Below, one piece after another: positions 3,654 to 3,856 of a stretch of DNA of 64,000 nt. The stretch lies in assembly GCF_003334255.1 (NCBI RefSeq), contig NZ_QOWU01000012.1; one strand, given 5' to 3'. Every line of letters starts with the position of its first letter. Position 1 is the stretch's first letter. The notes below the pieces were generated by a model, which saw only the letters and a list, made by a program, of their open reading frames with translations, was not told the DNA's origin and ran no database searches. The position numbers and the translations under genes were made by a program. This DNA comes from Escherichia coli. Lineage in GTDB: Bacteria > Pseudomonadota > Gammaproteobacteria > Enterobacterales > Enterobacteriaceae.

Positions 3654-3817
3654 AGCTTTAATCCTTATTGTTGATGCTTGTTGTGCCTGAAAATCAGGCG
3701 ATTCGTCGTTTTAGTAAACAGTACGAACAGATAAACGGTTATTATAATCAACCTGGCTGTGAGTAGCTATAGTTGCCAGGTCCGACCGGAGCAGGCTGCG
3801 GCAGGGGGGGCGCTTTT

Positions 3818-3856
3818 CCCCTCACCCTAACCCTCTCCCCAGAGGGGCGAGGGGAC
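3818..3856. repeat. GC-rich imperfect palindrome (cccctcaccctaaccctctcccc aga ggggcgaggggac) forming a ~10-bp stem hairpin
   Basis: Inverted C-run/G-run arms read directly; overlaps the ycjD stop codon; no flanking T-run, so REP-like rather than an intrinsic terminator. Confidence 0.5.

Follow-up and report, generated by a model that had tools for sequence, protein, structure and literature searches.

Genome comparison indicates that the Escherichia coli gene ycjD, which encodes a DUF559-domain protein, normally ends inside a copy of the dispersed BoxC-type repeat (also named PIT element or TMECO), that relatives of the gene in at least six phyla have their ends written in the repeat as well, and that further copies usually flank the gene. 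The stretch analysed here, 64,000 nt of an E. coli genome (RefSeq assembly GCF_003334255.1, contig NZ_QOWU01000012.1; hereafter the window), carries an altered form of this arrangement. Its GC-rich element at the 3′ end of the ycjD open reading frame (ORF), described in an initial annotation made from the letters alone as a repeat absorbed into the coding region, is copy no. 9 of this already known repeat family, and the overlap of the ORF with it appears to be a secondary accident of a strain-specific deletion; we hold the two statements jointly with high confidence. Taken alone the window feature is ordinary, a catalogued repeat beside a small strain deletion, and the wider linkage of repeat and gene family matters more. 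That linkage is apparently unreported: no literature connecting DUF559 genes to BoxC-type repeats was found in a search that was incomplete, so that an earlier description is possible.

The BoxC-type family has been known since the early 1990s, and we know of no function, origin or mobilizing enzyme for it. The element (cccctcaccctaaccctctcccc-aga-ggggcgaggggac, at 3818–3856) lies in the segment yciW-fabI-ycjD-sapF-sapD of E. coli, in which all genes are on the minus strand. Read on that strand it consists of three blocks: a pyrimidine arm CCCTCGCCCC (3844–3853), a TCT loop, a purine arm GGGGAGAGGG (3831–3840), a TTA loop, and a third purine block GGGTGAGGGG (3818–3827). The initial annotation had recognized a two-arm unit; its hairpin (3831–3853) is real and imperfect, with one mismatch (CCCTCTCCCC/GGGGCGAGGG), but the third block had been missed. 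TMECO, an intrastrand triplex motif of E. coli for which BoxC and PIT element are older names, has the consensus 5′-CCCTCNCCC N3–6 GGGNGAGGG N3 GGGNGAGGG-3′ and has 23 copies in strain MG1655 (Holder et al., 2015; PMC4666352). Number 9 in Table 1 of that paper is CCCTCGCCCCTCTGGGGAGAGGGTTAGGGTGAGGGG, type A with one mismatch, located at 1,351,204–1,351,239, antisense, and all 36 nt of the minus strand at 3818–3853 are identical to it; in NC_000913.3 these coordinates fall between fabI and ycjD and hold the same sequence. The consensus has a single exact match in the window (3819–3853, minus strand; 0.00 expected in shuffles), and so has the pattern proposed in the initial annotation (one match, 0.00 expected). 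That annotation was also right to suspect a dispersed repeat: a 71-nt probe finds matches in all 5426 complete E. coli genomes, at a median of 19 places per genome (range 2–35). The copy thus shares with the published family its three-block consensus, its dispersed and mostly intergenic spread, and its subtype, type A (TTA loop) with one stem mismatch being the commonest; it differs in that an ORF overlaps it in the window, whereas TMECOs are always intergenic according to Holder et al. (2015; PMC4666352).

The strong argument against chance is the motif itself, not folding. The 41-nt element as DNA has a folding energy of −12.4 kcal/mol (minus strand, z = −2.9) or −9.7 kcal/mol (plus strand, z = −1.55), and the composition is so rich in G+C that an 86-nt context folds no better than its shuffles (z = −1.27 and −0.45); folding energy alone is therefore a weak argument, and the stable hairpin claimed at first holds as a structure with one mismatch, not as one that stands out from its context. 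A permissive Rfam 15 search of 3500–4400 gave only chance-level scores over the element (16.4 bits against 40; 15.5 against 88). Past the hairpin, the ycjD strand reads UUAGGGUGAGGGG, with no T run, and a scan of 3600–4400 for terminator-like sites does not list the element; identity as an intrinsic (Rho-independent) terminator was rejected on these two grounds. Isolated strands (consensus oligonucleotides) form triplexes in vitro, none were detected in vivo, and earlier studies reviewed there saw neither promoter nor terminator activity, according to Holder et al. (2015; PMC4666352).

The reading frame of this allele encodes 148 aa: residues 1–106 correspond to K-12 YcjD, and the final 42 come from DNA that lies between genes in K-12. 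Its final residues GPLAPLGRGLG and its stop codon are encoded by the element, as the initial annotation had stated, and the G7 run noted there is present beside it (see the table). The window is 100% identical to strain NCTC86 over 682 bp, and it is identical to K-12 MG1655 save for one gap: 106 extra bp of K-12 lie between 3949 and 3950, flanked in MG1655 by two perfect 23-bp copies of GAATATTCTCCAGCACCGTCTCC. The stop codon of K-12 ycjD (117 aa) lies within those 106 bp; because their loss took away the true stop, the ORF enters copy no. 9, which in K-12 stands 168 bp past the ycjD stop with flanks identical to those in the window. Comparison of ycjD 3′ ends among strains, as the initial annotation had proposed, showed that the ends differ. 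The undeleted arrangement is shared by E. coli lineages whose identity ranges between 99.4% and 94.9%, whereas the deleted allele is confined to 40 records among the 5426 genomes (among them NCTC86, HS, and strains named ‘167’), each of which matches a 201-bp junction probe with 100% identity; the deletion is therefore judged recent and derived, with recombination or slippage across the two 23-bp copies as its simplest explanation. The whole ycjD 3′ region is missing from about 2050 of the 5426 genomes. The allele is of some interest for annotation: the 148-aa protein is deposited as ‘DUF559 domain-containing protein’, yet PGAP calls the same locus, in NCTC86 and HS, a ycjD pseudogene with ‘missing C-terminus’.

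Several points weigh against this account. Its polarity derives from distribution and identity in an unrooted comparison, and a rare ancestral allele could conceivably have been kept in one clade; the 106-bp segment could have been gained either by tandem duplication or as a patch from a diverged allele; its inner 35 bp are, in our own reading of the alignment, only loosely like the spacer; and the 148-aa product is a prediction from sequence alone. Insertion of a mobile GC-rich palindrome into the 3′ end of ycjD, or its capture there, replacing the C-terminus in this strain, would likewise leave an ORF that ends in a member of a dispersed family, and TMECO loci are described as unusually variable and rearranged between strains in PMC4666352. 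Copy no. 9, however, occupies the same site with the same flanks in K-12 and the same place in Escherichia ruysiae, intergenic and 165 bp upstream of fabI in both, and the alleles differ only by the 106-bp gap in the 3′ region of the gene, with no insertion of a repeat. We consider such an insertion barely credible, and the absorption of the repeat into the coding region, as first proposed, is abandoned in favor of an ORF that ran into a resident copy after the deletion.

Other alterations at the locus were observed. In E. coli/Shigella databases, ycjD products of 129–160 aa occur (P0003, P0010, P0015, P0020), whose extra residues are repeat copies and a duplicated 3′ end read through in various frames; the locus has therefore undergone repeated small indels. 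Between sapF and fabI of O157:H7, an 8-kb island (TetR, RND adaptor, frameshifted RND permease, outer-membrane factor, and MFS efflux genes) replaces ycjD together with its repeats, and homology with the window ends at 3776/3777, 41 bp from the repeat.

The normal end of the gene was read from its relatives. Homologues of 120 aa in Enterobacter, Klebsiella, Kluyvera, Phytobacter, and others end in ...PSPRPSP, and the DNA of these ends (CCC TCA CCC CGG CCC TCT CCC TGA AAGGGAGAGGG) is a complete type B motif of which the C-rich strand is read and whose hairpin loop holds the stop; a type A copy in opposite orientation follows 10–190 bp downstream. The authentic 3′ end of ycjD lies in the same way inside a BoxC-type copy that gives PSPxPSP and the stop, and it is this copy that is deleted in the window. 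The initial claim that the repeat supplies the end of ycjD thus holds for the authentic 3′ end and for the relatives, through a different copy, but copy no. 9 is reached only through the deletion. The genomic setting varies: Escherichia has the gene between sapF and fabI, Enterobacter and Franconibacter have it behind a radical-SAM/HemN-like gene, and in Klebsiella and Kluyvera its neighbors are genes for a solute-binding protein and a Dyp peroxidase, one on either side.

The tail could have been kept for the needs of the protein, its likeness to BoxC being a by-product of proline and serine codons, and it is indeed found in homologues of many genera that are only 45–60% identical. The codon usage speaks otherwise. 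The codons CCC TCA CCC nnn CCC TCT CCC recur without exception at 13 loci of distant taxa, among which are unclassified Gammaproteobacteria and a Chromatiales genome; the third positions of the six Pro/Ser codons are 100% identical in 13 of 13 loci, while pairwise third-position identity at invariant four-fold residues of the gene body of the same loci is 0.19–0.44. Since third positions are invariant in the tail and near-random elsewhere, the tail is conserved as DNA and not as protein, and the element is multi-copy, so that neither of the two observations named at the outset as speaking against a repeat (a unique element, a tail conserved as protein) was made. Nor is the stop fixed in place: it can fall in the loop, beyond the hairpin, or within the following repeat, and loss of the loop stop lets the reading frame extend, giving PSPWKGEGENQ, PSPQRGEGD, or, in the Enterobacter-type protein P0047, ...NHPLAPLGRGLG. 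The last of these ends in ...PLAPLGRGLG as does the window ORF, because in both the terminating TGA belongs to the third block of a type A copy. Both the Pfam domain and the stretch aligned to the structure 3HRL (see below) end before the tail. Conservation for the sake of the protein is accordingly very improbable.

Two further observations concern the DNA between copies. In Klebsiella (L007, 1864–2050), three tandem units of ~66 bp, each with a CCCTCTCCC...GAGAGGGAG hairpin, lie between two repeat copies downstream of the DUF559 gene, and the spacer of the lldD-trmL doublet of E. coli (L015, 1063–1121) resembles the Klebsiella unit (GAGGGAGAAA...CGAACGGT).

The older history of the ycjD 3′ end is suggested by E. 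ruysiae, which has the same sapF-ycjD-fabI context and a single 3′ end: its ycjD ends ...LSPSPQPSP-TGA, and a 49-bp spacer is followed by the same type A copy. Aligned together with E. ruysiae and MG1655, the window proves collinear with the former, and the original terminal copy of ycjD survives in it as a decayed remnant (3901–3933) with a 13-bp deletion and several substitutions relative to E. ruysiae; owing to these changes the TGA of the remnant is out of frame and no in-frame stop is left. A direct repeat CCCTAACCCT(C/T)TC is common to the remnant and copy no. 9, and the remnant had been taken for a degenerate type A copy on that basis, a reading overturned by the E. ruysiae alignment. 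The spacer with its weak terminator-like hairpin is conserved in E. ruysiae, and the counterpart of the G7 run is interrupted there. The 106-bp segment of K-12 brings another version of the 3′ end (...ENILQELNRRSPSP-TGA), which has a weakened two-block hairpin of its own. We infer from this an order of events in which ycjD would ancestrally, as in E. ruysiae, have ended inside a first copy whose C-rich strand is the one read, copy no. 9 lying ~50 bp further downstream in opposite orientation and untranslated; in E. coli the 106-bp segment with its second 3′ end and repeat would have become the functional end (...RRSPSP-TGA in K-12), after which the old end would have decayed; and in the lineage of the window, exchange or slippage between the 23-bp repeats would have removed the 106 bp and joined the DUF559 body to the decayed end, from which translation would run on until the third-block TGA of copy no. 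9. The last 42 codons would be accidental, as the decayed end has no in-frame stop, and the new tail is presumably without function.

Linkage between repeat and gene was assessed at loci found by a scan of one genome per species with peptide patterns from the domain core, which is blind to repeats. The 80 loci obtained span Gamma-, Beta-, Alpha-, and Deltaproteobacteria, Melainabacteria, Elusimicrobia, and Planctomycetes; together with six further loci, the scan loci furnished 73 analysable loci from ~70 species. A homopyrimidine/homopurine hairpin lies at −45 to +120 of the stop codon in 63 of the 73 (86%), in its full three-block form in 53 (73%), against a background in the outer flanks of the same loci of 0.24 motifs per kb, or 0.04 expected per interval of this size. 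The initial annotation had asked whether DUF559 homologues end before the element: the Pfam domain does, and the genes normally end inside such a repeat. Positions of the motif are sharply bimodal: 61 full motifs start immediately upstream of the gene, 400–600 bp ahead of its stop, 73 stand no more than 100 bp from the stop, and almost none falls between. A copy in the orientation of the gene stands upstream at 44 of 71 loci (62%), an inverted copy stands at the stop at 47 of 71, and both are found at 33 of 71. Flanking copies of this kind also accompany DUF559 genes in Deinococcus, Synechocystis, and Picosynechococcus; in E. coli and other Enterobacteriaceae both copies are 3′ of the gene and do not bracket it.

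Block sequences vary with the taxon and the architecture is constant: Gallionella has CCTTCCCCC-ATGCA-GGGGGAAGG-TTA-GGATGGGGG, a Rhizobium CCCCTCCCC...GGGGAGGGG-TG-GGGGTGGGG, Neisseria CTCTCTCCC-CGT-GGGAGAGAG-TTA-GAGAGAGGG, and Melainabacteria AGGGAAGG/GGATGGGT. Where the arms are asymmetric, the third block usually matches the purine arm better in mirrored than in direct order (e.g., GGGGGAAGG followed by GGATGGGGG), with 12 mirror-only, 4 direct-only, and 16 ambiguous cases, a small count that is sensitive to register and often turns on one mismatch; a general 9-mer mirror/direct test was dropped, as register shifts in near-symmetric blocks confound it. Two paralogues in one Nitrosomonadales genome (L056 and L072) carry different repeat variants. 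The link to DUF559 genes is new here relative to the published family: PMC4666352 names no associated gene class and does not use the word ‘endonuclease’.

Two individual loci deserve description. The gene of Neisseria lactamica (L059), whose product is closely like the protein of PDB entry 3HRL in the aligned stretch, is flanked upstream and downstream by direct copies CCTCTCTCCC-(C/T)GT-GG(G/A)AGAGAG-TTA-GAGAGAGGG-CAGCAAAC, and more copies lie further downstream. On plasmid pAQ6 of Picosynechococcus PCC 7002 (L100), the DUF559 gene, which adjoins PIN-domain and DUF1156 genes, is bracketed by pairs of miniature three-block C5/G5 motifs, such as TCCCCCAGAATGGGGGTCAGGGGGC.

It is unlikely, though not to be dismissed lightly, that the repeats at DUF559 genes are mere cis elements (terminator, mRNA stabilizer, or operator) and that other copies in the genome have nothing to do with the protein. 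The motifs do lie at ends of transcription units, where stable hairpins often protect 3′ ends; against this stand the missing T run and the negative terminator scan described above, together with the earlier negative results on promoter and terminator activity recorded in PMC4666352, and a terminator role leaves the third block, the upstream copy at 44 of 71 loci, and the membership in a family that is also dispersed in the genome, as in E. coli, unexplained. Rather improbable, too, is a simple accumulation of BoxC-type repeats beside existing copies, by which a DUF559 gene with one copy would collect more in the absence of any functional link. Such growth would suit the frequent pairing and clustering of copies and the Klebsiella array between two of them, but it gives no reason why this gene family should be involved in Proteobacteria, Melainabacteria, Cyanobacteria, Deinococcus, and Planctomycetes alike, nor why paralogues in one genome should have different variants.

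The protein side of the association is a nuclease-fold family. The DUF559 domain of the window ORF is complete and untouched by the deletion, so the 148-aa protein could still be active; its score against NCBIfam NF007294 (YcjD) is 261 bits (cut-off 218), and a Pfam search of the ORF returned DUF559 and REase_MTES_1575 alone. Among solved structures, PDB 3HRL (‘endonuclease-like protein’) comes closest (E = 8e-40); PDB 3R3P, a ‘mobile intron protein’ which we take to be the homing endonuclease I-Bth0305I, matches marginally over the ELDGGQH...RFWNNE core (E = 0.023). The protein is of the Vsr-like PD-(D/E)xK nuclease fold. A PADLOC search gave no match, and PHROGs gave weak matches only. To our knowledge, YcjD/DUF559 is a widespread nuclease-fold family that has no known substrate, and we know of no activity of any DUF559 protein on BoxC-type motifs.

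We propose tentatively, as a possibility suggested by analogy, that the BoxC-type three-block repeats are the cognate DNA partners of the YcjD-type DUF559 (Vsr-fold) nucleases. The gene with its flanking copies would be a ‘master’ unit, and dispersed single copies and A/B doublets would be its derivatives or targets, much as REP/REPIN sequences relate to RAYT or a homing nuclease to its sites. On this view the mirrored third block and the mismatch conserved in the stem might be features recognized by the protein, instead of or besides being triplex formers. In a 60-row sample of E. coli, matches to the 71-nt probe number 15–33 (median ~24) in genomes that carry the copy no. 9 locus and 3–21 (median ~6, many with only 3–7) where it is absent; this gap is in the direction that the partnership predicts and is confounded by phylogroup. 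The idea that A/B doublets of K-12 are footprints of lost DUF559 3′ ends was rejected, as four of the five have, with third blocks inward, the opposite geometry to the pair at the ycjD 3′ end, and only lldD-trmL fits. The inward geometry matches the upstream-plus-stop bracket of other taxa, and no pair of occupied and empty sites was found.

The closest known parallel is REP/BIME with RAYT (REPIN-RAYT): in both systems short structured repeats occur in tens of copies, often as inverted doublets, and a nuclease-type gene, usually with few copies per genome, stands beside copies of the repeat. Both also have paralogue-specific variants and repeats that persist in strains without the gene; the DUF559 gene is flanked on both sides at 33 of 71 loci from other taxa and on the 3′ side only in Enterobacteriaceae. 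They differ in that the protein here is DUF559/Vsr-like and not an HUH tyrosine transposase (IS200/IS605 type), in that the repeat is a three-block homopurine/homopyrimidine mirror motif and not a simple REP palindrome, in that one BoxC-type copy overlaps the stop codon of the gene, and in that the BoxC-DUF559 pair has so far been seen in genome sequences only. Of the Vsr-fold nucleases, 3HRL is a close homologue and 3R3P a marginal match; the varied genomic settings would be in keeping with a selfish nuclease, but no intron or intein context was seen around the genes studied here. Active mobility finds little encouragement: no near-identical DUF559 cassettes occur within one genome, the top identities being between genomes and at most 88%, and recent transposition was rejected for want of near-identical paralogues within a genome; plasmid carriage is rare (35 of 72,556 records, several of them chromosome-sized); and both copies are 3′ of the gene in Enterobacteriaceae.

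Table. Features of the ycjD 3′ region and their positions in the window
Feature	Position	Strand	Basis or remark
G7 run (3804–3810) and GCGCTTTT (AAAAGCGC on the minus strand), repeat flank	3804–3817		
BoxC/PIT/TMECO copy no. 9, type A with one mismatch	3818–3853	−	Three blocks; consensus match
TGA stop of the 148-aa ORF	3822–3824	−	Within the third block of the repeat (GGG TGA GGG)
ycjD reading frame, this allele	3822–4268	−	148 aa, GTG start, ends ...GPLAPLGRGLG
Weak terminator-like hairpin with T-rich tail	3892–3906	−	Consensus scan only; in the spacer between remnant and copy no. 9
Decayed remnant of the original terminal BoxC-type copy of ycjD	3901–3933	−	Three-way alignment
Complete DUF559 (PF04480) domain, residues 4–110	3939–4259	−	Pfam E = 2.9e-48, model 2–108 of 109
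Lone remaining copy of the 23-bp direct repeat GAATATTCTCCAGCACCGTCTCC	3950–3972		Junction of the 106-bp deletion

A flank resembling (G)CTTTTCC also stands beside other copies of the repeat, at ygfF-gcvP and lldD-trmL. Downstream of sapF, at 4268–4306, a perfect 14-bp AT-rich palindrome (CCTCATTCTGACAA/TTGTCAGAATGAGG) overlaps the GTG start of the ycjD ORF; it has promoter-like hexamers on both strands, is present in E. ruysiae, and is not itself a BoxC-type motif. Elsewhere in the window the small RNA genes McaS/IsrA (56967–57062, minus strand) and FnrS (60440–60557, plus strand) are full length and above their Rfam gathering scores, as is usual for this region of the E. coli chromosome.

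The physical linkage merges two open questions, the role of the repeat and that of the nuclease, into one testable hypothesis, that the protein binds or cuts the motif, and offers a possible mechanism for the rearrangement hot spots reported at BoxC repeats. If the partnership is real, YcjD would gain a function, and the origin of the repeat family and its reported local instability would be explained; its confirmation would provide, after REP/RAYT, a second and mechanistically different case of a repeat coupled to a domesticated nuclease.
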